A DNA stretch of 64,000 bases, from positions 30,923 through 94,922 of the forward strand of contig CAZMID010000002.1 in the NCBI GenBank assembly GCA_964566255.1, read 5' to 3'. The notes beneath the pieces are model-generated. The model was not told the origin of the DNA and did not search any database. It saw nothing but the letters and a program-made list of their open reading frames with translations. This DNA comes from an uncultured Planctomycetia bacterium. GTDB lineage: Bacteria > Omnitrophota > Gorgyraeia > Gorgyraeales > Gorgyraeaceae. The position numbers were made by a program, and so were the translations under genes. Shown here piece by piece: positions 7,179 through 61,481 of the stretch (positions within the stretch are counted from its first letter, which is position 1; every line of letters starts with the position of its first letter).

Positions 7179-7191
7179 ACGGATTAATAAA

Positions 7192-8536: not shown

Positions 8537-8551
8537 ATATAGCCTATATAT

Positions 8552-9460: not shown

Positions 9461-9461
9461 T

Positions 9462-11549: not shown

Positions 11550-11558
11550 GGAGATATC

Positions 11559-12848: not shown

Positions 12849-12852
12849 GAAT

Positions 12853-16287: not shown

Positions 16288-16300
16288 AGGAAGACATGTC

Positions 16301-18258: not shown

Positions 18259-18291
18259 TTACCAAAAAGTATATATTTTTGATATTACTAA

Positions 18292-18390: not shown

Positions 18391-18441
18391 CTGCTATATT
18401 CCTTCCTAGGTATTAATTTAATACTAGCATATAAAATTATA

Positions 18442-18470
18442 TTGACCTTTCCTTTTATTTCTTTTATAAT
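18442..18470 (+). promoter_or_regulatory. Consensus σ70-type promoter (TTGACC-N17-TATAAT) upstream of uxs
   Basis: ttgacc at 18442-18447, a 17-nt spacer, then tataat at 18465-18470. The region is AT-rich. GGAGG sits 5 nt before the GTG start at 18517. Confidence 0.5.
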
Positions 18471-18516
18471 TATAGAACGTCCCTACCTAATATATTGTAT
18501 ATAATATGGAGGATAT

Positions 18517-25261: not shown

Positions 25262-26190
25262 AAATATTAGTTACAGGGGCAGCGGGTTATATAGGATCAG
25301 TTTTAACACCAAAACTATTGCAAAAAGGTCATAAGGTTATTGCTGTAGATAATTTTATGTATGGCCAAACCTCTTTATTAGATTCTTGTCATTATGATAA
25401 TCTGACTATTGTCCGCGGAGATGCTCGCGATAAAAAGTTAGTCACGAAACATCTCAGAGAGGTCGATGCTATCTTTCCTTTAGCTTGCCTTACAGGTGCA
25501 CCACTTTGTTCTAAGGATCCCTTTAATGCTAAGGCTGTCAATTTTGATGCGGTTAAGATGATTTTAGATTTACGCAGCAGAGGTCAAATAATAATCTTCC
25601 CTACTACAAACAGTGGTTATGGTATCGGGCAGAAGGGAGTCCATTGTACAGAGAGAACACCCTTAAATCCCGTTTCTTTTTATGGAAAACTAAAGGTAGA
25701 CCTAGAAAAAATGATTCTGGATTCCAAGAGTTGCATCACCTTAAGACTTGCTACTGCTTTTGGCATTAGCCCACGCATGAGGCTTGATCTCCTTGTCAAT
25801 GATTTTATTTATCGAGCTGTTATGGACCGGTATCTCGTTCTTTTTCAGGCACATTTTAAGAGGAATTACATACATGTGCAGGATGTTGCAAGGGCGTTTA
25901 TACATTCTTTAGAAAATTTTGATAGTATGAAAAACGAACCATACAATGTAGGTTTGAGTGATGCCAATTTAAGTAAATGGGAGCTATGTGAAGAGATAAA
26001 AAAACACCTTCCAGAATTTTATTTCACTGAATCTCAAATAGGAGAAGATCCTGATAAAAGGGATTATGTCGTAAGCAATGAGAAGATTGAAAAGACACGC
26101 TTTAAACCTGATGTGTCTCTTCAAATAGGTATTAGAGAGTTAATAAAGGGATATCAAATTATAAGAAGGAATCAGTTTTCCAATATTTAG
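25258..26190 (+). CDS. NAD-dependent epimerase/dehydratase family protein
   Basis: N-terminal ILVTGAAGYIGSVL Rossmann motif and an extended SDR fold. Confidence 0.7.
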   Translation: MKILVTGAAGYIGSVLTPKLLQKGHKVIAVDNFMYGQTSLLDSCHYDNLTIVRGDARDKKLVTKHLREVDAIFPLACLTGAPLCSKDPFNAKAVNFDAVKMILDLRSRGQIIIFPTTNSGYGIGQKGVHCTERTPLNPVSFYGKLKVDLEKMILDSKSCITLRLATAFGISPRMRLDLLVNDFIYRAVMDRYLVLFQAHFKRNYIHVQDVARAFIHSLENFDSMKNEPYNVGLSDANLSKWELCEEIKKHLPEFYFTESQIGEDPDKRDYVVSNEKIEKTRFKPDVSLQIGIRELIKGYQIIRRNQFSNI

Positions 26191-26195
26191 GTTTT

Positions 26196-27953
26196 ATGGC
26201 AGGAGTAAAAGAATTTTATAAAAGGGATAAAAGCCTCTTAATCATTTTTATGATTATGGTAGCTTATTATATACAGCATCTAGTAAGCTTTCGCTTAGGT
26301 ATAAATTTTGAAGAGTGCCGTGATCCAAATGCCTACCTTTTGGCTATGGAAGGCCATTTACCGTATCGAGATTTCGCCTGGTTTTATGGACCTTTTTCTT
26401 TCTTTGTCTATCCATTTATTATGAAGATCTTTGGTGTAAATTTGCTTGTTTTGAGACTTAGCTATATAATACTCGCTTCTTTTACTATACCCCTTGCTTA
26501 TTTTTTGGCTAGAAGGATACTACCTTATTTTTGGGCAGGAGTGGCTAGTTTTTTATCGATCGTCTTTTTTGATACACCTTATTATGCATTTAATCATATT
26601 TTCACTGTACTAGGAGGATTGGCGTGTTTGTTGATGGTTTGTAGATTTATAGAAAGAAATGAACAGATTTCCAATCTTTTTTGGGCAGGCATTTTTGCTG
26701 GTGTAGTAGTATTGACAAAACCTTTATTGTCAGGGCTTGTCTTATTTATAGCTGTTTCTTTATATCTATTGCTTTTCAGAGAATTAGGAGAATTAAAGAA
26801 GAGATTTAAGAATTATATGATCTTTGCTATAAGCATGTTCTTTTTGATTTTGCTGTATCTTTTGTACCTCTATTTCCAGACTACGCTTAAAGGTTTAACC
26901 ATAGCTTATCCATTTTTAGGTAGGGATTCACTGGTAGCTATTGAGAATATGCATGGGAATACAAAATTTTGGCCTTTGTTTTTGATGTTGGTCGAAAGGC
27001 TCAAAGGCATAATTCCAATAGCCGAGATTGTGAGCATATCCTCATTTAACGAGCTCAAAGGGCTTATGGTTGATTTTTTTGATGACTTTATTTTTCTCTT
27101 GCCTTTTATGGCATCTGGCCTAATCTTTTTAGTTTACATTGTTTCTAAATCCAACAAGATTACCCCATGGCTTAAGGAGAAAGTTCTTCTGGATAAAAAG
27201 TTCTTATTAATGTTTATCATTTTCTCTATTTTTATTTCTCTGGAAGGTATAAAGGTAGGCCACAGGTATAACAGGGCATATACCATGCAGGTTCCTTTCA
27301 TTCTCACCGTCTACATACTCTATTTTATAAAAAGCATTTGTTCTCGCAGGCGTATACTTACGGCAATTTTCGTAACATTATTTTTGTTTTATCTTAGTTT
27401 TTTGCATTTTTTTCGTTATCCGTACTCAATGATTAGAAAATACACTGAGCCTTTGAATCTTGATCGCGCTAGAATATTTCTTACGCTTCCAGAGAAGGAA
27501 TTATATCAATCCCTGGTGAGTCATCTTTCGGCTAATTTCAAAAAAGAAGACAGGATGGCTGTTATAGGTTATTCAGGCTGTTATTCTCAATTTAGTTTCT
27601 TAACTAAACAAAGAAATGTTTTTGAAGATCATGAATTTATATTTGCAAAGCTTAAATCTTTACTAAATACTTCATATAAAAGAGAGGAAGTAAAACCACA
27701 ATTGGCTTCTTTCGAAGATAGGATAATATCTAGAATGGAGAGAGAAAAACCCAAGATCATTTTGATTATAGTCAAAGATTCCTTACAGGATCAAAGGTTG
27801 AAAGATTACAAATTTTTATCCTCAAGGATAAAATCTTATATAAAAAGGAACTATTTATTTGATAAGGTATTTGGGCCGGCAGATATTCATGGACTTGGAG
27901 GCAGGATAGGCTGGATTAACCTATACAAATTAAAAGGAGCGTCACGATCATGA
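26196..27953 (+). CDS. Polytopic membrane protein, GT-C-like (ArnT/PMT-type glycosyltransferase or polymerase candidate)
   Basis: At least 11 predicted hydrophobic helices. An acidic first loop (…EECRDPNAYLLAMEG…) resembles the GT-C DE loop. There is a C-terminal soluble region. Confidence 0.35.
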   Translation: MAGVKEFYKRDKSLLIIFMIMVAYYIQHLVSFRLGINFEECRDPNAYLLAMEGHLPYRDFAWFYGPFSFFVYPFIMKIFGVNLLVLRLSYIILASFTIPLAYFLARRILPYFWAGVASFLSIVFFDTPYYAFNHIFTVLGGLACLLMVCRFIERNEQISNLFWAGIFAGVVVLTKPLLSGLVLFIAVSLYLLLFRELGELKKRFKNYMIFAISMFFLILLYLLYLYFQTTLKGLTIAYPFLGRDSLVAIENMHGNTKFWPLFLMLVERLKGIIPIAEIVSISSFNELKGLMVDFFDDFIFLLPFMASGLIFLVYIVSKSNKITPWLKEKVLLDKKFLLMFIIFSIFISLEGIKVGHRYNRAYTMQVPFILTVYILYFIKSICSRRRILTAIFVTLFLFYLSFLHFFRYPYSMIRKYTEPLNLDRARIFLTLPEKELYQSLVSHLSANFKKEDRMAVIGYSGCYSQFSFLTKQRNVFEDHEFIFAKLKSLLNTSYKREEVKPQLASFEDRIISRMEREKPKIILIIVKDSLQDQRLKDYKFLSSRIKSYIKRNYLFDKVFGPADIHGLGGRIGWINLYKLKGASRS

Positions 27954-28954
27954 TTATAAACAGAACCCCATTTCGTATTTCTTTTTTTGGTGGAGGAACA
28001 GATTATCCGGTCTGGTATAGAGAAAATGGCGGGGCAGTATTGGCTACAACGATAAACAAATATTGTTACCTGAATTGTCGATATTTACCGCCTTTTTTTG
28101 AACATAGATCCCGGGTTACCTATTCCAAAATAGAACTTATTAAGGATAAAGATGAAATTGTACATCCTTCTGTCAGAGAGTGTCTGCGATTTATGGAGAT
28201 AGACAGAGGCATAGAGATTCATCACGATGGAGATCTTCCTGCAAGGACAGGTGTGGGTTCAAGTTCTGCTTTTACTGTTGGATTGCTCCATTCACTTTAT
28301 GCATTAAAGGGAAGCATGCCTACTAAAAGGCAGTTGGCACTTGACGCCATCCATATCGAGCAACAAAGAATAGAGGAAAATGTTGGATCTCAGGATCAGG
28401 TACAGGTTGCCTTCGGCGGTTTTAATTTGATAAAATTTGGAGGAAAAGATCATATTAACGTTATGCCAATGACAATAAGTCATCAGAGATTGGAGCTTTT
28501 TCAAGATCACCTGATGCTTTTCTTTACAGGATTTTCTCGGACAGCTTCAGAGATTGCTGCAGAACAGATCAAGGTAACGCCCTATAAGAAAAAAGAATTA
28601 GGTCAGATGCATGAGATGGTAGGTGTTGCCTTGGAGATTCTTAACAGTAATGCTGATTTATTGGATTTTGGGAAGCTTATGCATGAAAATTGGCAGATTA
28701 AACGTAGTCTTTCCAATAAGATATCTACTTCTATAATTGACGAGATGTATTCTGCTGCTATTGAGGCTGGTGCTTTAGGTGGAAAGTTATTAGGCGCTGG
28801 CGGTGGTGGTTTTATGCTGATTTTTGCTAAGCCAGAGATCCAACCAAAAATAAAGGAAAAATTGAAAAAACTTTTATATGTACCTTTTAGATTTGAAGAT
28901 TCAGGAAGTCAGATTATATTTTATAGCCCGGATAATTCTTTTATAAGGGTATGA
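27950..28954 (+). CDS. GHMP-family sugar kinase, HddA-like (D-glycero-D-manno-heptose 7-phosphate kinase)
   Basis: MIINRTPFRISFFGGGTDYPVWYRENGGAVLATTINKY matches the HddA N-terminus. The GHMP motif PARTGVGSSSAF and C-terminal GAGGGGF are present. Confidence 0.68.
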   Translation: MIINRTPFRISFFGGGTDYPVWYRENGGAVLATTINKYCYLNCRYLPPFFEHRSRVTYSKIELIKDKDEIVHPSVRECLRFMEIDRGIEIHHDGDLPARTGVGSSSAFTVGLLHSLYALKGSMPTKRQLALDAIHIEQQRIEENVGSQDQVQVAFGGFNLIKFGGKDHINVMPMTISHQRLELFQDHLMLFFTGFSRTASEIAAEQIKVTPYKKKELGQMHEMVGVALEILNSNADLLDFGKLMHENWQIKRSLSNKISTSIIDEMYSAAIEAGALGGKLLGAGGGGFMLIFAKPEIQPKIKEKLKKLLYVPFRFEDSGSQIIFYSPDNSFIRV

Positions 28955-29679
28955 AGAGTAACATTGAGGTAAAAGATGTGGATGTAGTTATACTTTGCGG
29001 AGGTAAAGGAGAACGCTTAAAGTCTGTTATTAATGATTGCCCAAAGCCTATGGCTGATATTAATGGCAGTCCTTTTTTGGATATTCTTATTGATTATGTG
29101 GCAAGTTTTGGATTTAGACGTTTTATATTATGTACAGGTTTTATGGGCGGGACGATCAAACGATATTATCAAAAGAGAAAGGATCCTTTAGAGGTATTGT
29201 TTTCAGAAGAGAAAGAGGCTTTAGGTACGGCTGGAGCAATAAAAAATGCAGAAACCATTATAAGAAGCAATCCTTTCCTGGTGCTTAACGGTGATTCATT
29301 TTGTCGGATTGATTTAAAGGAATTTATTGATTTTTATTTTGCTAAAAAAGCAATGTTTTCTGTAGTTCTGGTTAAAGGTGCAAAAGGATCTCGTAAACAG
29401 TGTGGTGTAGTTAAGATAGGAGCATTGCAGCAGGTTATTAGATTTGACGAGAAGGTGGAGATAGTTGGTAGTAGTTTTTTTAATGCCGGAATTTATCTTT
29501 TTGAAAGAAGTATTTTTTCCATGATCCCAAGCAATAAAAATTTCTCTTTTGAATATGATTTGTTTCCTAAAATTATTGATAGACCTTTTTATGGATTCGT
29601 CAGTGAAGAAGAGATGGTAGACATTGGGACTCCTCAAAGATATATGAAAGCAAAGAAATATTTTGAAGGAATAAGATGA
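28951..29679 (+). CDS. Sugar-phosphate nucleotidyltransferase, HddC-like (heptose 1-phosphate guanylyltransferase candidate)
   Basis: VVILCGGKGERLKSV…PKPMADINGSPFL is an NTP-transferase motif. It is translationally coupled to the HddA-like kinase. Confidence 0.62.
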   Translation: MKSNIEVKDVDVVILCGGKGERLKSVINDCPKPMADINGSPFLDILIDYVASFGFRRFILCTGFMGGTIKRYYQKRKDPLEVLFSEEKEALGTAGAIKNAETIIRSNPFLVLNGDSFCRIDLKEFIDFYFAKKAMFSVVLVKGAKGSRKQCGVVKIGALQQVIRFDEKVEIVGSSFFNAGIYLFERSIFSMIPSNKNFSFEYDLFPKIIDRPFYGFVSEEEMVDIGTPQRYMKAKKYFEGIR

Positions 29680-36145: not shown

Positions 36146-36156
36146 GGGGATTTGAA

Positions 36157-42570: not shown

Positions 42571-43506
42571 ATGAAGAAAAAATCAAAAATATTCATTACG
42601 GGACATAATAGTATGCTGGGTTCTGCTCTATTCAATCGGTTAAAAGAAGGAGGATTCAGTAACTTAGTCGCGAAGGATTCATCAGAACTTAATCTTACGA
42701 ATCAGAGGGCCGTTGATTCATTTTTCAAAAAAGAAAAGCCCGAATATTGCTTTTTAGCTCCAATAAAAGAAGGCGGGATACTTTTAAATATGATGCATCC
42801 TGCTGAATTAGTTTATCAGAACATTGCCACACTAAGTAATGTTGTTCATTCTGCATGGGAGGCAGGGGTTAAGAAGCTTTTATTTTTTGCCAGCTCCTGT
42901 GTTTATTCTAAGGACTGCCCTCAACCTATGAAGGAAGAATATTTATTGACAGGTCCATTAGAGCCGACCAATGAGGCGTATGCAATTGCTAAGATTGCAG
43001 GGATTAAAATGTGCCAGGCATACAATGCTCAATTTGGTACACGGTTTCTTTCTGTGATACCTGCTACTGTTTTTGGACCAGAAGATAATTTCGATTTTAA
43101 GACTTCTCATGTGATATCTGCATTGATTAGGAAATTTCACGAGGGCAAGATAAAAAATGAGCCTGTTGTTAATATCTGGGGGACAGGGAAACCTCGCAGG
43201 GAATTTATATATGTGGACGATTTGGTAGATGCAAGTCTGTTCTTTATGCAGGAAGATAATCCTGTAGAACTTATTAATATGGGTAGTGGTATGGATGTAT
43301 CTATACAAGAGCTGGCTGAGTTGATAAAAGGACTTACTGGTTTTAAAGGTAAGATAGAATTTGATACTACTAAACCCGATGGTGTCTTAAGAAAGTTGCT
43401 TGATAGTCATCGTTTAAATTCTTTAGGTTGGAGACCGAAGGTCGGACTTCAAAAAGGATTGAAGAATACTTATCAGTGGTATACAAATAAAAAGGTTAAA
43501 AGGTAA
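42571..43506 (+). CDS. fcl: GDP-L-fucose synthase (GDP-4-keto-6-deoxy-D-mannose 3,5-epimerase/4-reductase)
   Basis: [40 protein letters not shown] and [11 protein letters not shown] match E. coli Fcl motifs ([38 protein letters not shown]). Confidence 0.85.
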   Translation: [311 protein letters not shown]

Positions 43507-44530: not shown

Positions 44531-44549
44531 TAAGGATTGGAGTGAGGTT

Positions 44550-51567: not shown

Positions 51568-52752
51568 ATGAAAAGACTATCGAAGATTACAGATGGATTG
51601 ATTGGCCAACCTATGTTTAAACTTCTTGTAAAAGTAAAGGAGATGGAAGAAAGAGGCGCTAGGATCTTTCATTTTGAAATAGGGGATTCGGATTTTAGGG
51701 CGCATCAACATATTGTAGAAGCAACCAAAAAGGCGCTCGATAATGATAAAACTCATTATGTTTCATCAATAGGTATATCAGAATTAAGAGAGGCTATTTG
51801 CGATTCTACAGAAGAGACATTGGGTTTTAGACCAGATCTAGACCAGGTGGTTGTTATGCCGGCCAATGGTATTATTGATTTTGTAATGCGCTGTGTTGCT
51901 GAACCAGGTGACGAGGTTCTGTATCCTGACCCAGGGTTTTCTACATATCTAGCTGTAACTAATTATACAGGCATTAAAAAGGTCGGGATCCCTGTAAGGG
52001 AAGAAAATAGATTCCACATGGAACCAGAAGAAATAAGAAGACGGATAACTGATAAAACGCGACTTCTAATTATTAACTCTCCACAAAACCCAACAGGTGC
52101 TGTGATGAGCAAAAAAGATGTAGAAGAAATCGCCTTAATAGCCCAAGAGAATGATATCTATATTTTGAGTGATGAGATATATTCAAAGGTTATTTATGGG
52201 AAGACACATTATTCACCCAGTTTTCTAGATAGATGTTTAGACAGGACTATTATTTTAAATGGGTTTGCAAAAAATTATTCAATGCCTGGATGGAGATTAG
52301 GTTATGCGATAGGTCCAAAAGAGGTTATCAAAAAGATGGGCATCCTTTTTCAGACAATTTATTCTTGCACACCTCCTTTTATTCAATATGGAGGGATTGC
52401 AGCACTAAGAGGAGATCAGAGAGCTATCGGAGAAAGGATACAGAAATATAAAGCACTAAGAGATCTAATTGTTAAGGGGTTAAATGAGATTCCTGGGGTA
52501 TCTTGCATGGTTCCAGAGGGTGCTTGTTATGTTTTTCCGAATATAAAAGGGACTGGGATGGACAGTGTTCAGTTTGCTGATTTTGTACTGGAGAAGGCAG
52601 GAGTAGCCCTTTTACCTGGAACGTGTTTTGGTGAGTATGGTGAGGGACATGTAAGACTTTGTTACACGAGACATCCAGAAGTTATTAAAGAGGCATGCGA
52701 AAAAATGAAAAAGGCATTCATGGAGAAGAAAAATGAAGTCTGTATTCATTAA
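51568..52752 (+). CDS. Class I/II PLP-dependent aminotransferase (aspartate aminotransferase-like fold type I)
   Basis: Length and motifs (…IINSPQNPTGAV…, …NGFAKNYSMPGWRLGYAIG…) match the pattern with the conserved PLP-binding Lys. The C-terminal HVRL is present. Confidence 0.8.
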   Translation: MKRLSKITDGLIGQPMFKLLVKVKEMEERGARIFHFEIGDSDFRAHQHIVEATKKALDNDKTHYVSSIGISELREAICDSTEETLGFRPDLDQVVVMPANGIIDFVMRCVAEPGDEVLYPDPGFSTYLAVTNYTGIKKVGIPVREENRFHMEPEEIRRRITDKTRLLIINSPQNPTGAVMSKKDVEEIALIAQENDIYILSDEIYSKVIYGKTHYSPSFLDRCLDRTIILNGFAKNYSMPGWRLGYAIGPKEVIKKMGILFQTIYSCTPPFIQYGGIAALRGDQRAIGERIQKYKALRDLIVKGLNEIPGVSCMVPEGACYVFPNIKGTGMDSVQFADFVLEKAGVALLPGTCFGEYGEGHVRLCYTRHPEVIKEACEKMKKAFMEKKNEVCIH

Positions 52753-53887
52753 TGATATTACATTGAGAGATGGGGAACAGGCTGCAGGAGTTAATTTTTT
52801 CCCTGAGGAAAAATTAAAGATTGCCGAAAGCTTGGTTAAATTGGGCGTCCCTATAATTGAAGCTGGGTTTCCAATAGCTTCAGACCAGGACGCTAAAGGC
52901 GTGGAGCTGGTTGCTAAAGAATTCGGAAAAGATATTATCATTAGCGCTATGTGTAGAGCTGTATTTAAAGATATAGAAGTAGCGAGTAAATCATTAGGAG
53001 ATGCCCCTAAAAGAAGGATACAGGTTGTTATGGGTACCTCCGACATACATTTAAAGCATAAGTTTAACATATCAAGAGAAAAGGCCTTAGATATCTCAGT
53101 AGAGTCGGTTAGATATGCTTGTAAGTTTTCTAACGATATAGAGTTTGCGGCCGAAGATTCTACAAGAAGCGATCTAAGCTATCTTATAGAGGTGTGCAAG
53201 GCTTGTGTTGCAGCAGGTGCAAAGACAATAGAACTTCCTGATACTGTTGGATATGCTACACCAGAAGAATATTTCAATATGGTAGCTTCAGTTGTAAAAT
53301 CCCTTCCTTCAGAAGTGATTGTTTCTACGCACTGTCATAATGATCTTGGTATGGCAACAGCAAATACACTCGCAGGCATTCAGGCAGGTGCCAAGCAGGC
53401 AGAAGTTACCATAAATGGAATTGGAGAAAGAGTTGGGAATGCATCTTCAGAAGAGGTCATTATGGCTTTAAGGGCGAGGAGAGATTTTTATAAGATCGAT
53501 GTAGACTATGTCAATGCCAAAGAGATTATGAAGTTGAGTAAGTTGATTGAGGAACTTTCCCAGATAAAGATCGCTCATAATAAGGCTGTTGTTGGAAAAG
53601 GGGCATTTTTACATGAATCAGGCATACATCAAGATGGGCTTATAAAGTCACCTCAGACGTATCAACTTTTAAACCCAGGAGACATTGGTCTAGAGGGGTA
53701 TGAGTTAGTTATAGGAAAACTCTCAGGGAAGAATGCCTTAAAAGAGAGGATGAATATTATTGGGATTGGGTTAGGCGATAAAGATATGGCAGATTTTTCT
53801 AGGTTTTTTAAAGATCATGTTGCAAAAAAGAAATTTATTACAGATGATGATATATCAAATCTATACAAGAGATGGAAAAACAGCTAG
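52733..53887 (+). CDS. HMGL-like DRE-TIM metallolyase (2-isopropylmalate/homocitrate/citramalate synthase family) lacking a LeuA regulatory domain
   Basis: INDITLRDGEQAAGVNF… matches the (L)RDGEQ motif, and …HCHNDLGMATANTLAGIQAGA… matches HxH. It is 384 aa, catalytic TIM barrel plus a short subdomain. Confidence 0.75.
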   Translation: MKSVFINDITLRDGEQAAGVNFFPEEKLKIAESLVKLGVPIIEAGFPIASDQDAKGVELVAKEFGKDIIISAMCRAVFKDIEVASKSLGDAPKRRIQVVMGTSDIHLKHKFNISREKALDISVESVRYACKFSNDIEFAAEDSTRSDLSYLIEVCKACVAAGAKTIELPDTVGYATPEEYFNMVASVVKSLPSEVIVSTHCHNDLGMATANTLAGIQAGAKQAEVTINGIGERVGNASSEEVIMALRARRDFYKIDVDYVNAKEIMKLSKLIEELSQIKIAHNKAVVGKGAFLHESGIHQDGLIKSPQTYQLLNPGDIGLEGYELVIGKLSGKNALKERMNIIGIGLGDKDMADFSRFFKDHVAKKKFITDDDISNLYKRWKNS

Positions 53888-54693
53888 TAGAAATATTTAA
53901 AAAAATGTGTTTGATCCGCTATTTTGAGCTCCAGGTTATTGAGCCCAGAAAGAATGGTCTTACGCCTGGCCCTGTTTATTTGTCAGTAGGACAGGAGGCT
54001 ATTTCTAGCGCAATTTCAATGCTTACAAAAGGATATTCAGTTTTTGCACAGCATCGCTGTCACTCAGTGTATTTAGCATATGGTGGAGATCCTGGACGTC
54101 TTGTAGACGAGTTGTTTGGTCGAAGTTCAGGGTGTTGTGGGGGTAAGGGTGGCTCACCGTGCATACAAGATTTAAATATTCCTATGTATGGGCATCATGG
54201 GTTAATAGGAGAGAATATACCTTTGGCGACTGGTTATGCATTGGCTACGGGAAAACCTACAGTTGCCTATTTTGGCGATGCAGCATCTGAAGAAGATTAT
54301 GCATTGACTTCATTTGGTTTTGCTACAACTCATAAATTACCTATTTTATATGTTTGCGAAGATAACGATTTATCCATTTTAACTCCTATTAAGGACAGAA
54401 GAGATTGGAATGTTCATGATGTGACCACAGCTATGGGATTAAAGACCGAAGTGATTGTAGATGATCCTAAAGTAATCCTGGATACTGTTGGGGGGCTGAT
54501 TGAAAAGCTTCCTGCATTTGTCAATATTCAGACCACCAGGCACCTTTGGCATGAAGGGGGAGGGATCGATGGTCCTCCTGTGAGAGATAGAATAGCTGAG
54601 ATGAGAAAAATAATACCCGATGCATCAAAAATAGAAGATGAAATAAAAACATATGTTGAGGAACTATGGCAAAGACAGTCGCAGAAACTATAA
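53872..54693 (+). CDS. Thiamine-diphosphate-dependent E1 alpha-like subunit (short form)
   Basis: …CLIRYFELQV…PVYLSVGQEAI… matches the E1α N-terminal motif. TPP-binding is YFGDAASEEDYALTSFGFA…CEDND. It is 273 aa. Confidence 0.68.
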   Translation: MEKQLVEIFKKMCLIRYFELQVIEPRKNGLTPGPVYLSVGQEAISSAISMLTKGYSVFAQHRCHSVYLAYGGDPGRLVDELFGRSSGCCGGKGGSPCIQDLNIPMYGHHGLIGENIPLATGYALATGKPTVAYFGDAASEEDYALTSFGFATTHKLPILYVCEDNDLSILTPIKDRRDWNVHDVTTAMGLKTEVIVDDPKVILDTVGGLIEKLPAFVNIQTTRHLWHEGGGIDGPPVRDRIAEMRKIIPDASKIEDEIKTYVEELWQRQSQKL

Positions 54694-55553
54694 AAGAAGT
54701 TACTCGCAGGCATTTAGAGGAAAACAAAGGTTTATTGTTCGGGCAGTCCATAACAGCTGTTGGATGGGTAAATAATACAGTGCCTGACTGTAGAAATATT
54801 GTTGAATTTCCTATGTCTGATGTGTCCAATATGGGGATAGCTTGTGGTGCAGCAATTAGTGGGCGGCGACCTATTATTGTTATTCGTTTTCAGGATTTTA
54901 TGTGGCTCAATAGCAGTACCTTGGTAAATTATGCTGCCAAGTCCAAGGATATTATGGGCATACCGACGCCAATATTTGTAAGGGCTTTGGCCTTGGATAA
55001 TGCAGGCTGTGTCCATTCAGGTGTCCTCCACGGTATATTTATGCATATGCCGGGTTTCAGGGTTTGTTCTCCTATGACACCAAAAGAATATGAGGAAGCC
55101 TGGGATGATTTTATGGCTCATGACGATCCAATGATTGTTAGCGAACATAGAAAGAGTTTCAATAATACTGAGGAGTTTGCAAATACAAACAATAAAGCAG
55201 ATGTAACATTGATTTCGATATCATCGGCACGTTTTAATGTGATTAAGGCTGCATCTATACTTGAGAAAGAAGGAATTAGATGTAATCTTGCTCATGTTAT
55301 GTGGCTTAAACCTTTCAAAAAGGATCATATCTTGGAGGCGTTGAACAATAGCAAAAGAGGTTTGGTAATAGATGCTGGTTTTGAAATATGCGGGGCTTCT
55401 CAATCTATAGCTTATGAACTTATGTTGGAGACTGGTAAGCCTGTGAAGGCTTTAGGATTAGAAGATCGTTCAGTAGGTGTGGGTCTTGAATCCCGAAACC
55501 CAACACCATCTGCTGAAAGAATAGTTGCAGGAGTCAAAGATTTTTTACAATAG
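54666..55553 (+). CDS. E1 beta-like / transketolase pyrimidine-binding subunit (short form)
   Basis: Its position after the E1α-like gene, the fold-compatible pattern (…GIACGAAISGRRPII…) and 295 aa support the call. The assignment is weaker than for the pair at 43517 and 44550. Confidence 0.6.
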   Translation: MAKTVAETIKEVTRRHLEENKGLLFGQSITAVGWVNNTVPDCRNIVEFPMSDVSNMGIACGAAISGRRPIIVIRFQDFMWLNSSTLVNYAAKSKDIMGIPTPIFVRALALDNAGCVHSGVLHGIFMHMPGFRVCSPMTPKEYEEAWDDFMAHDDPMIVSEHRKSFNNTEEFANTNNKADVTLISISSARFNVIKAASILEKEGIRCNLAHVMWLKPFKKDHILEALNNSKRGLVIDAGFEICGASQSIAYELMLETGKPVKALGLEDRSVGVGLESRNPTPSAERIVAGVKDFLQ

Positions 55554-55562: not shown

Positions 55563-56930
55563 GTGTTAGATATTTTATTAGTAAATCCTAGTAATCGACT
55601 TTCTCAATTTGGTGGGGTTTCCAAATATGCTACTATCGCTCAGCCATTAGGAATAACTATGCTTGCTGCTTACATAAGAAAGCATAGCTTTTCTGTTGAG
55701 ATCCTTGATGCAGAGGTTTTAGATCTTATCCCTGAGAGGGTTATAGACGAGATCGTGCGCCGCAACCCAAGATTTGTAGGTATCACTGCTTTTACGACAA
55801 AGATGACAGCAGCTAATAGAATATTTACTCTTTTAAAAGAAAAGGCACCTTATATAAAAACTATTATTGGAGGACATCATCCCTCTGCAATACCTGAAGA
55901 GACATTAAAAGAGTCAAATGTCGATTTTGTTGTTAAAGGTGAAGGGTACAAATCTATAGTAGATATACTTAGTGGGAGGAAAGACCCAATTCAAACAGCA
56001 GAACTGATGAAGGATATAAATGAACTTCCTCTTCCTGCGTGGGATTTGTTGCCTATGGATAAATATAGAGCTCATCACTGGCATACATGGGGTATTGGTC
56101 AGGCGAATTCATGTGCCTTGATCTATACATCTCTCGGATGCCCTTTTCAATGTAAATTCTGCAGTGTTTCTGTAGTCTATGGCAAGAGGATTTATAGAAA
56201 AAAGAGCCCTGAGCGCGTAATCCAGGATTTTGACGTGCTTTATAATAAGTATCACATTAAGCATATTGAGATTATAGACGATACATTTACCTTGGATAGG
56301 ACTCATGTAGAAAAGATATGTGACCTTTTGATTGAACGGAAGTACAATTTTAATATGTGGGCATTTTCAAGGACAGACACCACAGATCCTTATCTTATGG
56401 AGAAGATGAAAAAGGCAGGTATTAATTGGGTTTTTATGGGGATAGAAGCTGGTAATAGTAAAGTTTTGGATTCTGTGCTCAAAAAACAAAATTTGGAACA
56501 GATCCGTAATGCTATTGATATTGCGCATAAAGCTGGAATGAATGTCGGCACAAATTACATATTTGGCCTTCCTGATGACAGCTTTGAGACTATGCAGGAT
56601 ACACTTGATTTAGCATTGGAGCTTAATACAGAATGGAGTAATTTTTTTATAGCCATGCCTTATCCAGGGACAGAGATGTATGGTAAATCCAGAGCTGAAG
56701 ATTTACCTCAAGAATGGGAACAATATGGCTTCTTTGCACCGAATGCAAGGACATTACCTACGAGATATGTAAGTGGTGAGGATGTGGTGAGATTTAGAGA
56801 TAAGGCATTCCAGACTTTTTTTTCAAATCGGAATTATCAGGATATGATAGAAAAAAAGTTTGGCATGAAAAAATATATACAAGATATGCTGAAAAAGAAA
56901 ATCGGAAGGGATTATGAAACAAAGAGATAA
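55563..56930 (+). CDS. B12-binding-domain radical SAM enzyme (paralog of the ORFs at 41115 and 56914)
   Basis: GTG start. …IIGGHHPS…, KYRAHHWHTWG, TSLGCPFQCKFCSV. Confidence 0.74.
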   Translation: MLDILLVNPSNRLSQFGGVSKYATIAQPLGITMLAAYIRKHSFSVEILDAEVLDLIPERVIDEIVRRNPRFVGITAFTTKMTAANRIFTLLKEKAPYIKTIIGGHHPSAIPEETLKESNVDFVVKGEGYKSIVDILSGRKDPIQTAELMKDINELPLPAWDLLPMDKYRAHHWHTWGIGQANSCALIYTSLGCPFQCKFCSVSVVYGKRIYRKKSPERVIQDFDVLYNKYHIKHIEIIDDTFTLDRTHVEKICDLLIERKYNFNMWAFSRTDTTDPYLMEKMKKAGINWVFMGIEAGNSKVLDSVLKKQNLEQIRNAIDIAHKAGMNVGTNYIFGLPDDSFETMQDTLDLALELNTEWSNFFIAMPYPGTEMYGKSRAEDLPQEWEQYGFFAPNARTLPTRYVSGEDVVRFRDKAFQTFFSNRNYQDMIEKKFGMKKYIQDMLKKKIGRDYETKR

Positions 56931-58362
56931 TTTACTGATATTAAAGCCAGGCGCACAAGAGGAACTCTATCAAAAATTGAGTGAATCTTTATCAGGACTT
57001 GAGCCATCGTTATGGTCAGCATTGCTTGCTGCGTTCATAAGGGAGAAAGGCTTCAAGGTTAATATAGTAGATGCCGAAGTAGAATATGAAAGGTTGATAC
57101 CTGTTGTAACAGCCGAAATGCCAAAATTGGTTGCTATTGTAGCCTCTGGAACAAATCCTTCAGCATCTACAATGAATATGGTAGGCGTAAGAAATTTAGT
57201 CCAGGATATAAAAAGAGTGAATAAGGATTTACCTATTATATTAATAGGTCTTCATCCATCAGCATTACCCAGGCAGACTTTATTAGAAGAACCTGTGGAC
57301 ATGGTATGTGAGGGAGAGGGATTTTATACGTTATTGGATTTACTTTCAGATGTTGATTATAAAGATATTAAGGGTTTATGGTATAGAAAAGGAAAAGAGA
57401 TTCTTTCTAATCCTAGAGCTGAATTGGTTGACCCCAATGAACTACCTATGCCGGCATGGGAACTGATGTCTATGCATAAATATAGAGCTCATAATTGGCA
57501 TTGTTTTGGTCATACAGACGAAAGAAGTCCTTACGGAGTTATCTATACAAGCCTGGGTTGTCCTTTCAATTGTTCGTTCTGTTGCATAAATGCTATTTTT
57601 GGAGTACACAAAATACGATATAGAAACCCTAAGAAGGTCGTAGAGGAAATAGATTATCTTGTGAAGAACTATAATATTAAAAATTTTAAGATTATTGATG
57701 AAATGTTTGATTTAAATGATAACCATGTGATTGAGCTTTGCGATCTTCTTATAGAGAGGGACTATGGTTTAAACATATGGGCTTATACTAGAGTCGATAC
57801 AATGAATGAGAAGAAATTGAAAAGAATGAAACAGGCTGGGATAAATTGGCTGGGCATAGGTTTTGAGTCTGGTAATAGAGGAATTCGAGATACCGCTACT
57901 AAGGGTAGATTTGATAATGAGAAAATGAGACAGGCTGTAAAGATGATAAGAGATGCAGATATATATCTGGGTGGGAATTTTATCTTTGGCCTTCCCGGTG
58001 ATTCCCTTGAAACCATGCAGCAGACCTTAGATTTAGCAAAGGAATTTAATTGTGAATATGCAAATTTCTATGTTGCTATGGCTTATCCCGGATCCAAACT
58101 TTATGAAGAAGCCGTGGCTAAAAATCTTCCTTTGCCTGATTCATGGCTTGGTTATTCACAGTTTAGTTACGAGACACAACCTTTACCGACAGAATCTCTA
58201 TCTCCTTCTGAAATCCTGCGTTTCAGGGATAAGGCCTTTAATGAATTCTATAGCAGCAAATCCTATCAGGATATGATTTTGAAGAAATTTGGAGAAGAGA
58301 CACTTCAGCATGTAAAAGATATGCTTAAACATAGATTAAAAAGGCAATTATTGAGTGATTAG
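56914..58362 (+). CDS. B12-binding-domain radical SAM enzyme (paralog of the ORFs at 41115 and 55563)
   Basis: …LIGLHPS…, KYRAHNWHCFG, TSLGCPFNCSFCCI. It overlaps the upstream paralog by 17 nt. Confidence 0.75.
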   Translation: MKQRDNLLILKPGAQEELYQKLSESLSGLEPSLWSALLAAFIREKGFKVNIVDAEVEYERLIPVVTAEMPKLVAIVASGTNPSASTMNMVGVRNLVQDIKRVNKDLPIILIGLHPSALPRQTLLEEPVDMVCEGEGFYTLLDLLSDVDYKDIKGLWYRKGKEILSNPRAELVDPNELPMPAWELMSMHKYRAHNWHCFGHTDERSPYGVIYTSLGCPFNCSFCCINAIFGVHKIRYRNPKKVVEEIDYLVKNYNIKNFKIIDEMFDLNDNHVIELCDLLIERDYGLNIWAYTRVDTMNEKKLKRMKQAGINWLGIGFESGNRGIRDTATKGRFDNEKMRQAVKMIRDADIYLGGNFIFGLPGDSLETMQQTLDLAKEFNCEYANFYVAMAYPGSKLYEEAVAKNLPLPDSWLGYSQFSYETQPLPTESLSPSEILRFRDKAFNEFYSSKSYQDMILKKFGEETLQHVKDMLKHRLKRQLLSD

Positions 58363-58395: not shown

Positions 58396-59100
58396 ATGAA
58401 AGTAGCATTGTTGATCTTAACGCTTAACGAAATCGAGGCAGTAACTCAAGTTATGCCTAGAGTCAAGAGGGAATGGGTTGATGAAATTATTTTTGTGGAT
58501 GGGAATTCTACTGATGGGACGATAGACTATATAAAGGAGCACAATTACGGTTTATTGTTAGAAAAAAAACCTGGGGCACGAGAGGCCATGGTAGAAGCCA
58601 TCAATAATATGGAGAGTGACGTAGTCATTACTTTTAGTCCAGATGGTAATTGTATTCCCGAAGTTATTCCTAAATTGATTAAAAAGATGCAAGAAGGTTA
58701 TGATATGGTTATTGCCTCGCGCTACGCAGAGGGAGCAAAGAGTTACGATGATACGCGTATAACTGCTTTTGGGAATTGGATGTTCACAACGCTAATAAAT
58801 ATTTTATATGGAGCTAAATATAGCGATACTATGGGTGTTTATCGCATATTTAAAAAGAATCTTATAAAAGATTTAGATTTAGACAAGGATATTACATATA
58901 CAACCCCTGAAAAATTATTCAGGACAAAACTGGGATGGGATCCTATATTGTCTGTTCGGGCAGCTAAAAGAAAATTAAAGGTTTCCTATGTTCCTGCTGA
59001 TGAACCTTTGAGGATTGGTGGCAAACCGAAACTGCAGGTATTAAAATGGGGAGCTGGATATTTATTTCAAGTTATAAGAGAAAGATTTTTGTGGCGTTAG
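58396..59100 (+). CDS. GT2 glycosyltransferase, Dpm1/ArnC-like (paralog 3 of 3)
   Basis: LTLNEIEAVTQVMPRVKREWVDEIIFVDGNSTDGT…SPDGNC…ASRYAEGAKSYDD is collinear with the ORFs at 24533 and 37899, through to the C-terminal …RIGG…KLQV.KWG motif. Confidence 0.75.
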   Translation: MKVALLILTLNEIEAVTQVMPRVKREWVDEIIFVDGNSTDGTIDYIKEHNYGLLLEKKPGAREAMVEAINNMESDVVITFSPDGNCIPEVIPKLIKKMQEGYDMVIASRYAEGAKSYDDTRITAFGNWMFTTLINILYGAKYSDTMGVYRIFKKNLIKDLDLDKDITYTTPEKLFRTKLGWDPILSVRAAKRKLKVSYVPADEPLRIGGKPKLQVLKWGAGYLFQVIRERFLWR

Positions 59101-59135
59101 GGTTGACATATATAGGCATGAGGAGGCAATAAGAG

Positions 59136-61454: not shown

Positions 61455-61481
61455 GAATAAGATTAGAATATAAAGGAGGGT

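Follow-up and report, generated by a model that had tools for sequence, protein, structure and literature searches.

The acyl-branched sugars of LPS and LOS, including yersiniose, erwiniose, caryophyllose and gastriose, have been placed within one unifying scheme in which a keto acid is supplied, joined by ThDP-dependent carboligation to a 4-keto-deoxy sugar, and the product reduced (Steitz et al. 2022; PMC9306805). For erwiniose this gene logic consists of ErwJ/ErwI, a ThDP ligase and a reductase, and donor keto acids may, according to the same paper, also arise by transamination (PMC9306805). A separate group of established sugar C-branching ligases is of the E1α/β type (αKADH2), as in Plm8/9, AviB1/B2 and KbDH (PMC4802897; PMC12247030). 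These enzymes of actinomycete antibiotics (AviB1/AviB2, Plm8/Plm9, aldgamycin AlmDI/DII, kibdelomycin KbDH-α/β) are heteromeric E1α/E1β proteins without E2/E3, are set among deoxysugar genes, and convert a keto-sugar into a tertiary α-hydroxy ketone. The characterised members take only pyruvate (PMC12247030) and are described as giving C2 branches in secondary metabolites. In 2-oxo-acid chain elongation of the methylthioalkylmalate synthase (MAM) / HphA type, a LeuA descendant that has lost its regulatory domain works alongside an aminotransferase, which derives the 2-oxo acid from an amino acid.

In this study, we examine a four-gene cassette in a 64-kb window (the whole stretch of DNA analysed) that resembles each of these systems. 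Like the LPS/LOS loci, it would combine an enzyme pair for a functionalised 2-oxo acid with ThDP ligation, SDR reduction and a glycosyltransferase. The LPS/LOS ligases are single-chain and YerE-like (decarboxylase/AHAS superfamily), whereas that of the cassette is two-subunit and E1-type; their donors come from pyruvate aldolases, whereas the cassette has an aminotransferase and a LeuA-derived Claisen synthase; their nucleotide is CDP, whereas the cassette sugar probably carries GDP or dTDP; and the cassette clusters, unlike theirs, are rich in B12-radical-SAM enzymes. To our knowledge, donor supply by an aminotransferase and a LeuA-derived Claisen synthase has no precedent. We tentatively propose, at somewhat less than even confidence, that the cassette makes an unusual keto acid, which becomes a carbon branch of an activated sugar.

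The four overlapping genes

In the ORF list of the window, the four plus-strand frames lie exactly where a first-pass annotation of this DNA had placed them:

51568..52752, + strand, 394 aa: class I (AspAT/ArAT-like) PLP aminotransferase (AT)
52733..53887, + strand, 384 aa: LeuA-derived DRE-TIM Claisen synthase without regulatory domain (LeuA-like)
53872..54693, + strand, 273 aa: E1α-like ThDP-binding PP-domain subunit (short E1α, sE1α)
54666..55553, + strand, 295 aa: E1β-like subunit, PYR and C-terminal domain (short E1β, sE1β)

The reading frames overlap by 20, 16 and 28 nt in turn, an SD-like sequence lies within the preceding gene at each junction, and the junctions are translationally coupled. 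Chance ORFs are excluded because the entire cassette is kept in many unrelated contigs. The first-pass annotation had described four overlapping genes of these identities, a synthase with LRDGEQ and HxH motifs but no regulatory domain, and radical SAM genes on both sides. ORFs and Pfam bear this out: LRDGEQ occupies residues 11-16 and HCHND residues 200-204, Pfam finds no LeuA_dimer regulatory domain in the synthase, and B12-binding radical SAM genes stand at 50117 and 55563.

The AT matches Pfam Aminotran_1_2 (E 5e-63), and its best PDB matches are the P. horikoshii ArAT 1dju and AspAT 1gd9 (287 bits). Every NCBIfam match falls under its cut-off, the best being GntC (323, cut-off 415) and AspAT (309, cut-off 624). 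The protein carries the PLP-lysine motif FAKNYSMPGWRLGY and a C-terminal Arg (HVRLCY), and in eight other loci the LeuA-like gene is immediately preceded by an orthologue of 66-76% identity. We propose that AT would convert an α-amino acid into the cassette's 2-oxo acid, or the reverse.

A remodelled LeuA relative and a short E1 pair

The LeuA-like protein matches Pfam HMGL-like (E 6e-81) and HCS_D2 (E 1.5e-21), with BjMAM1A (6e1j) and NmLeuA (3rmj) as best PDB matches at ~314 bits. It shares with LeuA (EC 2.3.3.13) the DRE-TIM fold, the LRDGEQ and HxH metal site, the catalytic His/Tyr/Glu/Gln, and 42-47% identity to canonical-length LeuA-family proteins. Every catalytic residue of Claisen condensation is retained, those conserved being R12, D13, Q16, E141, T171, H200, H202, H299 and Y310. 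What separates it from LeuA, besides the missing domain, is its score, its pocket and its context. Comparison with LeuA profiles, a check proposed in the first-pass annotation, places the clade under all NCBIfam LeuA cut-offs (474 bits against 532 for this protein), and the pocket for α-ketoisovalerate has been remodelled. At four positions that set specificity in IPMS/MAM, the residue is invariantly a different one (His→Gln97, Phe→Val99, Ser→Ala139, Asn→Glu167), and Q97, V99, A139, E167, N7, I9, M73 and C74 are each at least 97% conserved across 120 clade members; a 51% identical protein of locus L031 has the same eight residues. Because this four-residue pocket signature is shared by only one of the 150 nearest cluster representatives, the protein is not a leucine enzyme. 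The first-pass annotation had set its reading against that of a sole leuA with leuBCD nearby; aconitase- or isocitrate-dehydrogenase-type genes (leuBCD) are absent from the window and nine orthologous loci, and the non-LeuA status is upheld there.

From its residues, the enzyme is predicted to be catalytically intact but retargeted, with an acidic/polar substrate pocket. The same pocket positions are changed in MAM/HphA, where V182 and A253 of MAM correspond to Q97 and E167, but there the pocket is hydrophobic. The cassette also differs from MAM/HphA in lacking a dedicated isomerase or dehydrogenase and in its downstream consumer, which would be a ThDP E1 of a sugar cluster where MAM/HphA feeds amino-acid or glucosinolate synthesis.

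The short E1α matches Pfam E1_dh (E 1.3e-17) over only the N-terminal ~175 profile positions, and belongs to a family of 1216 matches of 262-324 aa. Its ThDP motif (G135-D136-A138 ... C162-E163-N165) is invariant, as are R223 and H227. The best PDB match, human PDH E1α, reaches only 61 bits, and identity to the full-length E1α at 43517 in the same window is only 30%; the short subunits measure ~273/295 aa, against 337/351 aa for the window's full-length pair. The short E1β matches Transket_pyr (E 2e-14) and Transketolase_C (E 1e-13). In the alignment it has Asp at the normal position of the cofactor-activating Glu, reading PMSD/SMAD against TPLSE in the window's full E1β and GVAEQ in the window's transketolase C-half. 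No lipoyl or E2 gene occurs in the window or, for each of the nine loci with the same order, in surrounding sequence of up to 20 kb, and no E2/E3 partner of the pair was found in either. With motif and catalytic Arg/His retained, the pair is predicted to be a competent, free-standing ThDP enzyme. It is set apart from AviB, Plm and KbDH by the descriptions of those enzymes, and it is linked to makers of longer keto acids.

Public annotation names these proteins '2-isopropylmalate synthase' and 'pyruvate dehydrogenase E1 / acetoin oxidoreductase α subunit', and the kinship of LeuA-like to the LeuA family would agree with leucine biosynthesis (LeuA with a branched-chain or aspartate aminotransferase) and a pyruvate/acetoin dehydrogenase E1 embedded by chance in a glycan locus. 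This leucine/pyruvate reading is highly improbable and already contradicted. All matches miss the NCBIfam equivalog cut-offs, the regulatory domain is gone and the α-ketoisovalerate pocket replaced in every member, and neither leuBCD nor E2/E3 is present in the window and nine loci. Both E1 subunits are truncated, E1β with Glu→Asp, and synteny is strict within sugar-tailoring clusters, CPR-labelled bins included.

Conservation and the sugar-gene setting

The order AT-LeuA-sE1α-sE1β is identical in all nine LeuA-like loci examined, which come from Planctomycetota, Omnitrophota and bins labelled CPR, a label that for some contigs derives from binning and is unverified. NDP-sugar SDR and B12-radical-SAM genes are present in 9/9. 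The same four genes, rearranged, occur in L031, from cultured Paramagnetospirillum kuznetsovii. The cassette is a conserved unit across several uncultured bacterial phyla.

The evolutionary core of the cassette is the sE1α/β pair. Among the 27 loci with sE1α/β, sE1β follows sE1α in 25, that is, wherever the contig continues; in L028 and L030 the sequence breaks off inside the sE1α match or shortly past it. LeuA-like and AT stand alongside in only nine of the 27, and the pairs linked to them form mostly a single clade. When contigs are paired by their length, 25/52 top sE1α matches on contigs of 10 kb or more correspond to a top LeuA-like match. Hosts of the subfamily are surface-glycan loci of Planctomycetota, Omnitrophota, CPR-labelled bins, Desulfobacterota and others.

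Loci without AT and LeuA carry other keto-acid-forming enzymes in their place. L029 runs Gmd, acylating acetaldehyde dehydrogenase and 4-hydroxy-2-oxovalerate aldolase, sE1α/β, SDR and AKR; the DmpFG-like aldolase pair occupies the place upstream of sE1α, and the combination of dehydrogenase, aldolase, ThDP ligase and reductases is that of erwiniose. A UxaA/GarD-type dehydratase lies just upstream of sE1α in L020 and L027, and ~2.3 kb upstream in L010. Dehydratases of this type yield 2-keto-3-deoxy acids. L010 has a close sE1α/β pair (66-69% identity) with no AT or LeuA nearby, so sE1α/β may not need them.

That the L010 pair may work without AT and LeuA also agrees with an unlikely alternative, in which the short E1 adds a pyruvate-derived C2 (acetyl) branch, and LeuA-like and AT then modify the branch on the sugar; for instance, addition of acetyl-CoA at the branch ketone could produce a hydroxy-carboxymethyl group, or a transamination like that of kibdelomycin could follow. 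A hydroxylated sugar could fit the polar Glu/Gln pocket of LeuA-like, and characterised E1-type sugar ligases are all pyruvate-only, the branch ketone later being reduced, methylated, oxidised or transaminated (PMC12247030). However, the α-carboxylate-binding residues are kept (T171 and R12 in LeuA-like, the C-terminal Arg in AT), and an acetyl-branched sugar offers no α-keto-acid function. Amination of sugar ketones is normally the task of DegT-family enzymes, and the window has a separate, RfbH/ColD-like DegT enzyme at 45602. Moreover, the counterpart genes upstream of sE1α elsewhere (aldolase, dehydratase) clearly make donors.

The keto-sugar context of the cassette is observed directly; its genes and the other neighbours are the following:

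13311-14986: RmlA and RmlB (RmlB TIGR01181 447, above cut-off 365), the dTDP equivalent of the Gmd route
17260..18258, + strand: GDP-mannose 4,6-dehydratase-like (Gmd; TIGR01472 399.7 bits, cut-off 415), proposed source of the 4-keto-6-deoxy acceptor
25258..26190, + strand: SDR, GalE / 4,6-dehydratase-like (Pfam Epimerase, NCBIfam), candidate to make or reduce the keto-sugar
27950..29679, + strand: GHMP sugar kinase (HddA/fucokinase-like) and sugar-1-P nucleotidyltransferase (HddC/ManC-like) (Pfam, NCBIfam), proposed supply of a GDP-type sugar
42571..43506, + strand: GDP-L-fucose-synthase-like SDR, 3,5-epimerase / 4-reductase type (NCBIfam GDPFucSynFcl 415 bits, cut-off 500)
55563..56930, + strand: B12-binding radical SAM (Pfam B12-binding and Radical_SAM), directly downstream of sE1β
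56914..58362, + strand: second B12-binding radical SAM of the extended module (Pfam)
58396..59100, + strand: small GT2 polyprenyl-phosphate glycosyltransferase, AglJ / Dol-P-hexose / ArnC-like (Pfam Glycos_transf_2)

The 25258 SDR is among the two commonest partners of the short E1 pair, with orthologues (48-77% identity) in 14/27 loci; homologues of the Fcl-like SDR are likewise found in 14/27. No SDR reductase directly adjoins the cassette in the window. A B12-radical-SAM gene immediately follows sE1β in seven of nine cassette loci, and the one at 55563 is 82% identical to the same-position gene in L006 and 79% in L095; its probable role is tailoring, such as C-methylation, of either the donor or the branched sugar. 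Orthologues of the 56914 enzyme occur in L006, L008 and L095 (68-69%) and in five loci without AT and LeuA-like (45-47%). The GT2, with orthologues (66-72%) in the same three loci, matches NCBIfam AglJ (92 bits), DPhHxTase and ArnC-like, and is proposed to put the completed sugar on a lipid carrier.

Recurrence of GHMP kinase (9/27) and NTP transferase (5/27) with sE1α/β bears on another reading, which we consider improbable: the short E1 would be a non-oxidative 2-oxo-acid decarboxylase whose free aldehyde, such as a deoxy-aldose from a 2-keto-3-deoxy sugar acid, is phosphorylated by the kinase and activated by the nucleotidyltransferase, giving an NDP-sugar de novo with no branching. In L020 and L027 the kinase/transferase genes adjoin a HAD phosphatase and the UxaA/GarD dehydratase, decarboxylation of a 2-keto-3-deoxy-aldonate gives a 2-deoxy-aldose that can cyclise, and free sugars are substrates of GHMP kinases. 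Yet the L029 donor, 4-hydroxy-2-oxovalerate, would give 3-hydroxybutanal, from which no sugar ring is possible, and L029 instead has Gmd and genes of deoxygenation with which to make an acceptor. The HddA/GmhB/HddC-like trio equally fits ordinary GDP-hexose or GDP-heptose supply, and no path leads from a LeuA-type product to an aldose.

Proposed pathway

We infer the carboligase activity, its acceptor, the identity of the donor and the order of steps as follows. AT and the LeuA-derived synthase would make or reshape a dedicated 2-oxo-acid donor, AT exchanging α-amino acid and 2-oxo acid and LeuA-like extending a polar or cationic 2-oxo acid other than α-ketoisovalerate by a carboxymethyl unit from acetyl-CoA. 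The short E1 pair would act as ligase, first decarboxylating the 2-oxo acid and then transferring the acyl-anion equivalent so formed to the carbonyl group of a 4-keto-6-deoxy (or 3,6-dideoxy) sugar activated by a nucleotide, to yield an acyl-branched, higher-carbon sugar with a tertiary alcohol. The adjoining B12-radical-SAM enzymes and SDRs would tailor the branch, the small GT2 would transfer the sugar to polyprenyl phosphate, and polytopic GT-C-like proteins would bring it to the surface glycan. Against this branching model stand the Asp in place of the activating Glu in sE1β, the restriction of characterised αKADH2 ligases to pyruvate, the L010 pair with neither AT nor LeuA close by, and the lack of an SDR reductase right beside the cassette in the window.

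A linear passage from LeuA to E1 cannot hold literally. The 2-alkylmalate that a LeuA-type enzyme releases has no 2-oxo-acid group for a ThDP E1 to decarboxylate, so one of two step orders is needed. LeuA-like may act first, on a substrate with both keto-acid and amino-acid ends, AT then creating the donor keto group; such a bifunctional substrate is unprecedented. Alternatively, AT would precede LeuA-like and housekeeping LeuCD/LeuB would finish, as in Met/Phe homologation. None of the nine loci has an isomerase or dehydrogenase, a difficulty for this second order, and CPR usually have no leucine biosynthesis, which also counts against it.

The general idea of the first-pass annotation, a non-standard carbon substituent for a sugar and not primary metabolism, was right; its more specific suggestions fared less well. 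In function the short E1 pair follows the αKADH2 and YerE logic, in which 4-keto-deoxy NDP-sugars undergo ThDP-dependent C-branching. It is therefore probably E1 itself that fixes the substituent, through a C-C bond, in place of a CoA-ligase or acyltransferase. The earlier suggestion of an N-acyl or ester substituent, with AT and LeuA-like making a hydroxy-diacid (citramalate/homocitrate-like) or homologated amino acid for an amino sugar independently of E1, strikes us as quite improbable. LeuA-like enzymes do produce 2-alkylmalates, the DegT aminotransferase could supply an amino sugar, and keto-acid-derived N-acyl substituents are known on O-antigens. Nevertheless, no CoA-ligase or other ligase, ATP-grasp or acyltransferase is found by Pfam among any of the ORFs listed for 23.9-63 kb, or in the nine-locus cassettes, and across the 27 loci AT and LeuA are never found without overlapping sE1α/β directly downstream, which argues for one pathway. 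The other earlier suggestion, a keto-acid sugar itself, finds no support, NeuB- and KdsA-type synthases being absent.

The proposed role of the cassette fits the acyl-branched sugar scheme of keto-acid supply, ThDP carboligation and reduction. If true, the cassette would extend that scheme with an E1-type ligase and a new route of donor supply.

The four-gene cassette and its surface-glycan locus

The cassette consists of four consecutive, overlapping genes, and the ORF listing agrees exactly with the positions proposed in the first-pass annotation:

51568-52752, + strand: class I aminotransferase (AT; Pfam Aminotran_1_2, E 5e-63)
52733-53887, + strand: LeuA-like DRE-TIM synthase, 384 aa (Pfam HMGL-like, E 6e-81; HCS_D2, E 1.5e-21)
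53872-54693, + strand: short E1α-like subunit (sE1α), 273 aa (Pfam E1_dh, E 1.3e-17)
54666-55553, + strand: short E1β-like subunit (sE1β), 295 aa (Pfam Transket_pyr, E 2e-14; Transketolase_C, E 1e-13)

The overlaps are 20, 16, and 28 nt, and each overlapping start codon is preceded, inside the upstream gene, by a Shine-Dalgarno-like sequence. The proposed position of the cassette between radical SAM (rSAM) genes holds, as Pfam assigns both flanking genes to the B12-binding rSAM enzymes (B12-rSAM). The window is one long + strand array of ~36% GC in which the first ~9.4 kb carries housekeeping genes (dnaK, dnaJ, and others), an LptD-like gene lies at 9462, and a very large surface-glycan locus comes after it.

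Features of the window around the cassette (+ strand array)
9462-11549: LptD/LptC-like protein, 695 aa
19431-23904: Wzi and Wza-like exporter (966 aa, six SLBB repeats)
24533-27953, 37899-38570, 58396-63008: regions with small GT2 glycosyltransferases
29676, 32740: SPASM-type rSAM
31626: DUF362/4Fe-4S protein
33805, 39543, 41115, 48304, 50117, 55563, 56914, and others (nine): B12-rSAM
35285-37098: split transketolase (genes at 35285/36157; N half, then PYR + C half)
43517-45605: full-length E1α/β (genes at 43517/44550; 337 and 351 aa; Glu retained)
46825-48300: HemN-like rSAM (TIGR00538, 332.8 vs cut-off 324.95)
59136, 61482: polytopic proteins without a Pfam match (10 and 8 TM-like segments)

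The LptD/LptC-like protein, Wzi, and the Wza-like exporter together identify the source organism as diderm, with a capsule-type export system. A Wzi/Wza pair also stands ahead of the cassette in two related loci, L094 and L095. The sugar genes of the locus encode UDP-sugar dehydrogenases, RmlA/RmlB, a Gmd-like dehydratase, a GHMP kinase with a nucleotidyltransferase (HddA/HddC-like), several Fcl-like/GalE-like SDRs, and an RfbH/ColD-like DegT protein. The Gmd-like, RmlAB, Fcl-like, and DegT genes place the cassette in a keto-deoxy NDP-sugar context, and SDRs recur across the 27 loci with short E1 homologues that were compared. Nonulosonic or ulosonic acids were dismissed as the keto acid, there being no NeuB or KdsA-type genes.

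The locus encodes nine B12-rSAM, one HemN-like, and two SPASM enzymes, unusually dense between 29676 and 58362 (~29 kb); this density points to sugars that are extensively C-methylated or otherwise modified by radical chemistry. The HemN-like enzyme passes the curated cut-off for oxygen-independent coproporphyrinogen III oxidase although it lies inside a sugar cluster. It has homologues in related sugar loci (46% identity in L094, 37% in L027), and its automatic name is likely wrong. Three small GT2 proteins (223-242 aa; AglJ/Dol-P-hexose/ArnC, polyprenyl-phosphate type) each close a sub-module, accompanied by a PMT_2 GT-C protein (13 TM-like segments) and the two polytopic proteins, an arrangement suggesting that each modified sugar is attached in the periplasm by way of a lipid carrier. 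Three separate ThDP pairs are present: the split transketolase, after which come an SDR and a small GT2; the full-length E1α/β, followed by the RfbH/ColD-like DegT gene; and the short E1α/β. The locus therefore holds both E1-type and split-transketolase-type candidates for C-branching, and it may make several different branched sugars.

A LeuA-derived synthase with a remodelled pocket

The LeuA-like synthase carries the LRDGEQ and HxH motifs expected of it (the latter as HCHND) and, as had been read from the sequence, no regulatory domain, since Pfam finds no LeuA_dimer. Its nearest structures by sequence are bacterial LeuA (3rmj) and a plant methylthioalkylmalate synthase (MAM; 6e1j), at ~314 bits. 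Residues were placed through the alignment to 6e1j, its numbering, and published mutagenesis data (PMC11532901). The DRE-TIM catalytic core of LeuA is complete: R12, D13, Q16, E141, T171, H200, H202, H299, and Y310, which serve metal binding, binding of the 2-oxo-acid carboxylate, and acetyl-CoA enolisation, are conserved in all orthologues. In contrast, the α-ketoisovalerate (α-KIV) pocket is replaced. At the four positions that distinguish 2-isopropylmalate synthase (IPMS) from MAM, IPMS has His, Phe/Tyr, Ser, and Asn, and MAM has V182 and A253 at two of them, whereas the LeuA-like protein has Gln97, Val99, Ala139, and Glu167, invariant across 120 clade members. Further changes are N7, I9, V20-N21-F22, M73-C74, T199, and V234, and in the same 120 members conservation of the signature residues is nowhere under 96% and mostly 97.5% or more.

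The top 120 matches are 64-82% identical, all ~384 aa long, and form a tight clade that public databases label '2-isopropylmalate synthase'. Among the 150 nearest cluster representatives, drawn from 1.84 billion 50%-identity clusters and aligned with MAFFT on fast settings, 119-133 carry the canonical IPMS pocket residues and one carries the signature, and that one protein belongs to the LeuA-like family. The homologue of cultured Paramagnetospirillum kuznetsovii (51% identity) keeps the signature except at positions 199 and 234. Because the catalytic residues are present and the specificity positions are replaced, the protein is predicted to be able to carry out the Claisen condensation, with a 2-oxo acid other than α-KIV as substrate. 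The larger, acidic pocket suggests that this substrate would bear a polar or cationic side chain.

Assignment to LeuA, CimA, NifV, or homocitrate synthase by HMM, which had been suggested as a check, gave scores under all curated cut-offs; the best NCBIfam score, 474, fell short of its cut-off of 532 and came from profile positions 5-382 of 516. LeuA itself differs by its regulatory domain and equivalog score, both wanting in the 384-aa protein. The possibility raised earlier that this is the sole leuA of the genome, with leuBCD nearby, found no footing, as the 64-kb window and nine orthologous loci contain no aconitase or Iso_dh-type gene. A role for the cassette in primary metabolism is contradicted on every count and is barely credible. 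We also consider it very improbable that AT and the LeuA-like synthase make an independent N-acyl substituent, as neither the ORFs examined at 23.9-63 kb nor the conserved cassette of the nine loci include a ligase or acyltransferase for it.

Other candidates were set aside. A phosphonate pathway (FrbC/Pmi-like synthase, ThDP decarboxylase, aminotransferase, and PhpK-like rSAM) was rejected because the window ORFs examined contain no PEP-mutase domain and the acidic pocket speaks against a phosphonate substrate. An arginine-derived AT substrate, by way of GntC, was dropped at 323 bits, under the cut-off of 415 and too close to generic AspAT scores. The literature searched held nothing relevant on IPMS homologues in O-antigen or branched-sugar clusters.

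The short E1 pair and its genomic neighbours

Aligned along its entire sequence, the short E1α is 30% identical to the window's full-length E1α, whose terminal extensions it lacks. Its invariant residues comprise the ThDP motif (G135-D136-A138 ... C162-E163-N165) and R223/H227. A search returned 1216 relatives of 262-324 aa, and sE1α and sE1β are always paired. The best solved-structure matches are human PDH E1 (61 and 54 bits for sE1α and sE1β), and sequence search found no close solved structure. Scores fall far from those of 2-oxo-acid dehydrogenase E1 subunits (TIGR03182, 125 vs 394; PRK09212, 82 vs 321), sE1α matching just the N-terminal half of the E1α profile. The two-subunit organization of the αKADH2 family is present, with the family's GDG-X(24-27)-N motif in α as an invariant GDA...CEDN, PYR and C-terminal domains in β, and no E2/E3, the window having no lipoyl or 2-oxoacid_dh genes. 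The activating Glu of αKADH2 enzymes is replaced: whereas the full-length E1β of the window (TPLSE) and the transketolase C-half (GVAEQ) have Glu at this position, all short E1β sequences have Asp (PMSD/SMAD). Few ThDP enzymes have Asp where the PYR domain normally supplies the activating Glu.

Nine loci of the LeuA-like clade were compared: the window, L006 (Planctomycetota chromosome CP070728), L008 (Omnitrophota), L014 ('Vogelbacteria' bin), and L093-L097. Synteny is strict, the order AT, LeuA-like, sE1α, sE1β being kept in 9/9; the SDR, B12-rSAM, small GT2, and GHMP kinase genes around the cassette differ between loci. In P. kuznetsovii LBB-42 the cassette is rearranged (AT, B12-rSAM, LeuA-like, sE1α, sE1β). 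Across the 27 short-E1 loci, AT and LeuA-like orthologues always occur together and are limited to nine related loci and the window. As a proxy for co-location, 25 of the 52 top sE1α matches on contigs of at least 10 kb share the contig size of a top LeuA-like match. The short E1 pair ranges more widely, through Brocadia, Geomonas limicola, Desulfobacterota, Elusimicrobiota, Verrucomicrobiota, Magnetococcus, a Lachnospiraceae MAG, and bins labelled Saccharibacteria, Parcubacteria, Woesearchaeota, and Pacearchaeota. Its commonest neighbours are GalE-like SDRs (14/27), Fcl-like SDRs (14/27), GHMP kinases (9/27), and B12-rSAMs. The E1 pair is thus the evolutionary core of the cassette. A link to the anammox S-layer glycan or GDP-heptose was abandoned, as the literature gave no gene-level connection; the only tie to anammox is Brocadia, whose locus L016 carries the E1 pair.

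Where AT and the LeuA-like gene are absent, the gene directly upstream of sE1α is the decisive clue. In the Lachnospiraceae locus L029 (MAG contig CANREH010000018, 4717-13354), the order is RfbH-like DegT, Fcl-like SDR, Gmd (TIGR01472, 447 bits), acylating acetaldehyde dehydrogenase (415 bits), 4-hydroxy-2-oxovalerate aldolase (388 bits), sE1α, sE1β, SDR, and aldo-keto reductase. In L020 and L027 (G. limicola Red745, 5015-19742), a UxaA/GarD-family sugar-acid dehydratase lies immediately 5' of the pair and is itself preceded by genes for a GHMP kinase and an NTP transferase; in L020 a HAD phosphatase gene lies in between. In L010 such a dehydratase lies ~2.3 kb upstream of sE1α, and GHMP kinase and nucleotidyltransferase genes lie downstream. 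DmpFG-like pairs yield 4-hydroxy-2-oxovalerate and UxaA/GarD dehydratases yield 2-keto-3-deoxy acids, both of them 2-oxo acids. Dedicated 2-oxo-acid supply genes thus stand near the putative ligase in L029 (DmpFG-like) and in L020, L027, and L010 (UxaA/GarD-like). The G. limicola locus also carries three B12-rSAM genes and one HemN-like gene downstream of the pair. A route in which the pair acts as a decarboxylase feeding the kinase and nucleotidyltransferase, in the manner of salvage, would account for the co-occurrence of GHMP and NTP genes, but it fails for L029 and we regard it as quite improbable.

In erwiniose biosynthesis, the aldolase/acetaldehyde-dehydrogenase pair ErwI/ErwJ makes 4-hydroxy-2-oxopentanoate, the YerE-like ThDP enzyme ErwE ligates the donor to CDP-4-keto-3,6-dideoxyglucose, and a reductase finishes the sugar; the scheme has been extended to caryophyllose and gastriose, with transamination noted as another way to obtain the keto acids used as donors (Steitz et al., PMC9306805). 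A 2025 review (PMC12247030) divides the sugar-branching ThDP enzymes into three families: YerE-like members of the decarboxylase family, which add C2 to C7 branches in LPS; αKADH2 E1α/β enzymes of the antibiotics aldgamycin, kosinostatin, kibdelomycin, avilamycin, and paulomycin (also PMC4802897), which 'appear specialised for C2 branches'; and split-gene transketolases of miharamycin and amipurimycin. Given its gene set and the erwiniose steps, L029 looks like an erwiniose-type pathway with the short E1 pair in place of ErwE. If so, the YerE-like ligase, a key enzyme, has undergone non-homologous replacement in a Gram-positive gut lineage.

The window contains no TPP_enzyme_N/M/C protein of the kind expected for a YerE-like single-chain ligase. 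Omnitrophota locus L008 (JAHJTE010000002) encodes such a YerE/AHAS-type enzyme (TPP_enzyme_N/M/C, 596 aa) at 13288-15078, two genes 3' of the cassette, together with a split transketolase and the short pair, and therefore has all three ThDP ligase types in one locus.

A proposed branching pathway and its implications

The cassette is best read as a variant of ThDP-dependent acyl-branched sugar biosynthesis. The first-pass reading of a keto-acid module for sugar decoration stands in general outline; it missed the C-branching logic and the E1 pair as the core. By analogy with the relatives and the known systems, we infer ligase activity, acceptor, donor, and step order as follows, a scheme that we favor tentatively. 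A dedicated 2-oxo acid would be decarboxylated by the short E1 pair, which would then join the remainder to a GDP- or dTDP-4-keto-6-deoxy sugar produced by enzymes that the locus itself encodes. AT and the LeuA-like synthase would supply the donor, in the position taken by the aldolase or dehydratase of the relatives; modification of the resulting sugar would fall to the B12-rSAMs and SDRs, and its transfer to a lipid carrier to the small GT2. The context of L029, L020, and L027 suggests donors longer than pyruvate-derived C2, and AT fits the part of an adjacent 2-oxo-acid supply enzyme.

The weak point is that the LeuA-like product is a 2-alkylmalate, which E1 cannot take as substrate because it is not a 2-oxo acid. 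The difficulty could be resolved in three ways. First, the LeuA-like substrate could have both a keto-acid and an amino-acid end, AT then making the donor keto group. An ammonium bound by Glu167 would fit such a bifunctional substrate, for which we know of no precedent. Second, AT followed by the LeuA-like synthase could start a MAM/HphA-like homologation that housekeeping LeuCD and LeuB complete. This has strong precedent, and the MAM/HphA pathways likewise pair an aminotransferase with a LeuA homologue devoid of the regulatory domain; they differ in having a dedicated isomerase and dehydrogenase, neither of which occurs in any cassette locus, some of these being in bins labelled CPR (binning unverified). 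Third, AT and the LeuA-like synthase may act on the sugar after branching, tailoring an acetyl branch. Such tailoring would agree with the pyruvate-only record of αKADH2 enzymes and with L010, a relative without AT and LeuA-like genes, but both enzymes retain their α-carboxylate-binding residues, and we judge it unlikely.

In the literature searched, three elements appear undescribed: short Asp-type E1 enzymes as a putative ligase family linked to long donors, a LeuA descendant whose acidic pocket is invariant, and the fixed four-gene arrangement that joins them to an aminotransferase. Two large, uncharacterised enzyme families, systematically misannotated as '2-isopropylmalate synthase' and 'pyruvate dehydrogenase E1', are now defined, and as a mobile cassette the two recur in the surface-glycan loci of phyla about which little is known. 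A more far-reaching and decidedly unlikely possibility is that the LeuA-derived synthase, in place of a small hydrophobic keto acid, now takes a 2-oxo acid that is cationic or resembles a sugar, and may even be borne on one, and that, with a minimal Asp-type E1, it gives previously unseen carboxymethyl-branched (citramalyl-type), poly-C-methylated higher-carbon sugars on Omnitrophota, Planctomycetota, and CPR-binned surfaces. Were this so, it would add a new C-C bond-forming tailoring reaction to glycan biosynthesis and the first E1-type sugar ligase using long functionalised donors.

If the donor-supply model is true, E1-type ThDP ligases are not confined to C2 branches, against the current view, a LeuA descendant feeds sugar branching, and biocatalysis gains a donor-supply and carboligase pair for chiral tertiary alcohols. 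Cultured entry points are P. kuznetsovii LBB-42, with the full cassette, and G. limicola Red745, with the E1 pair and a dehydratase. Unusual higher-carbon branched sugars would be expected, on this model, in organisms that have so far had no glycan analysis.
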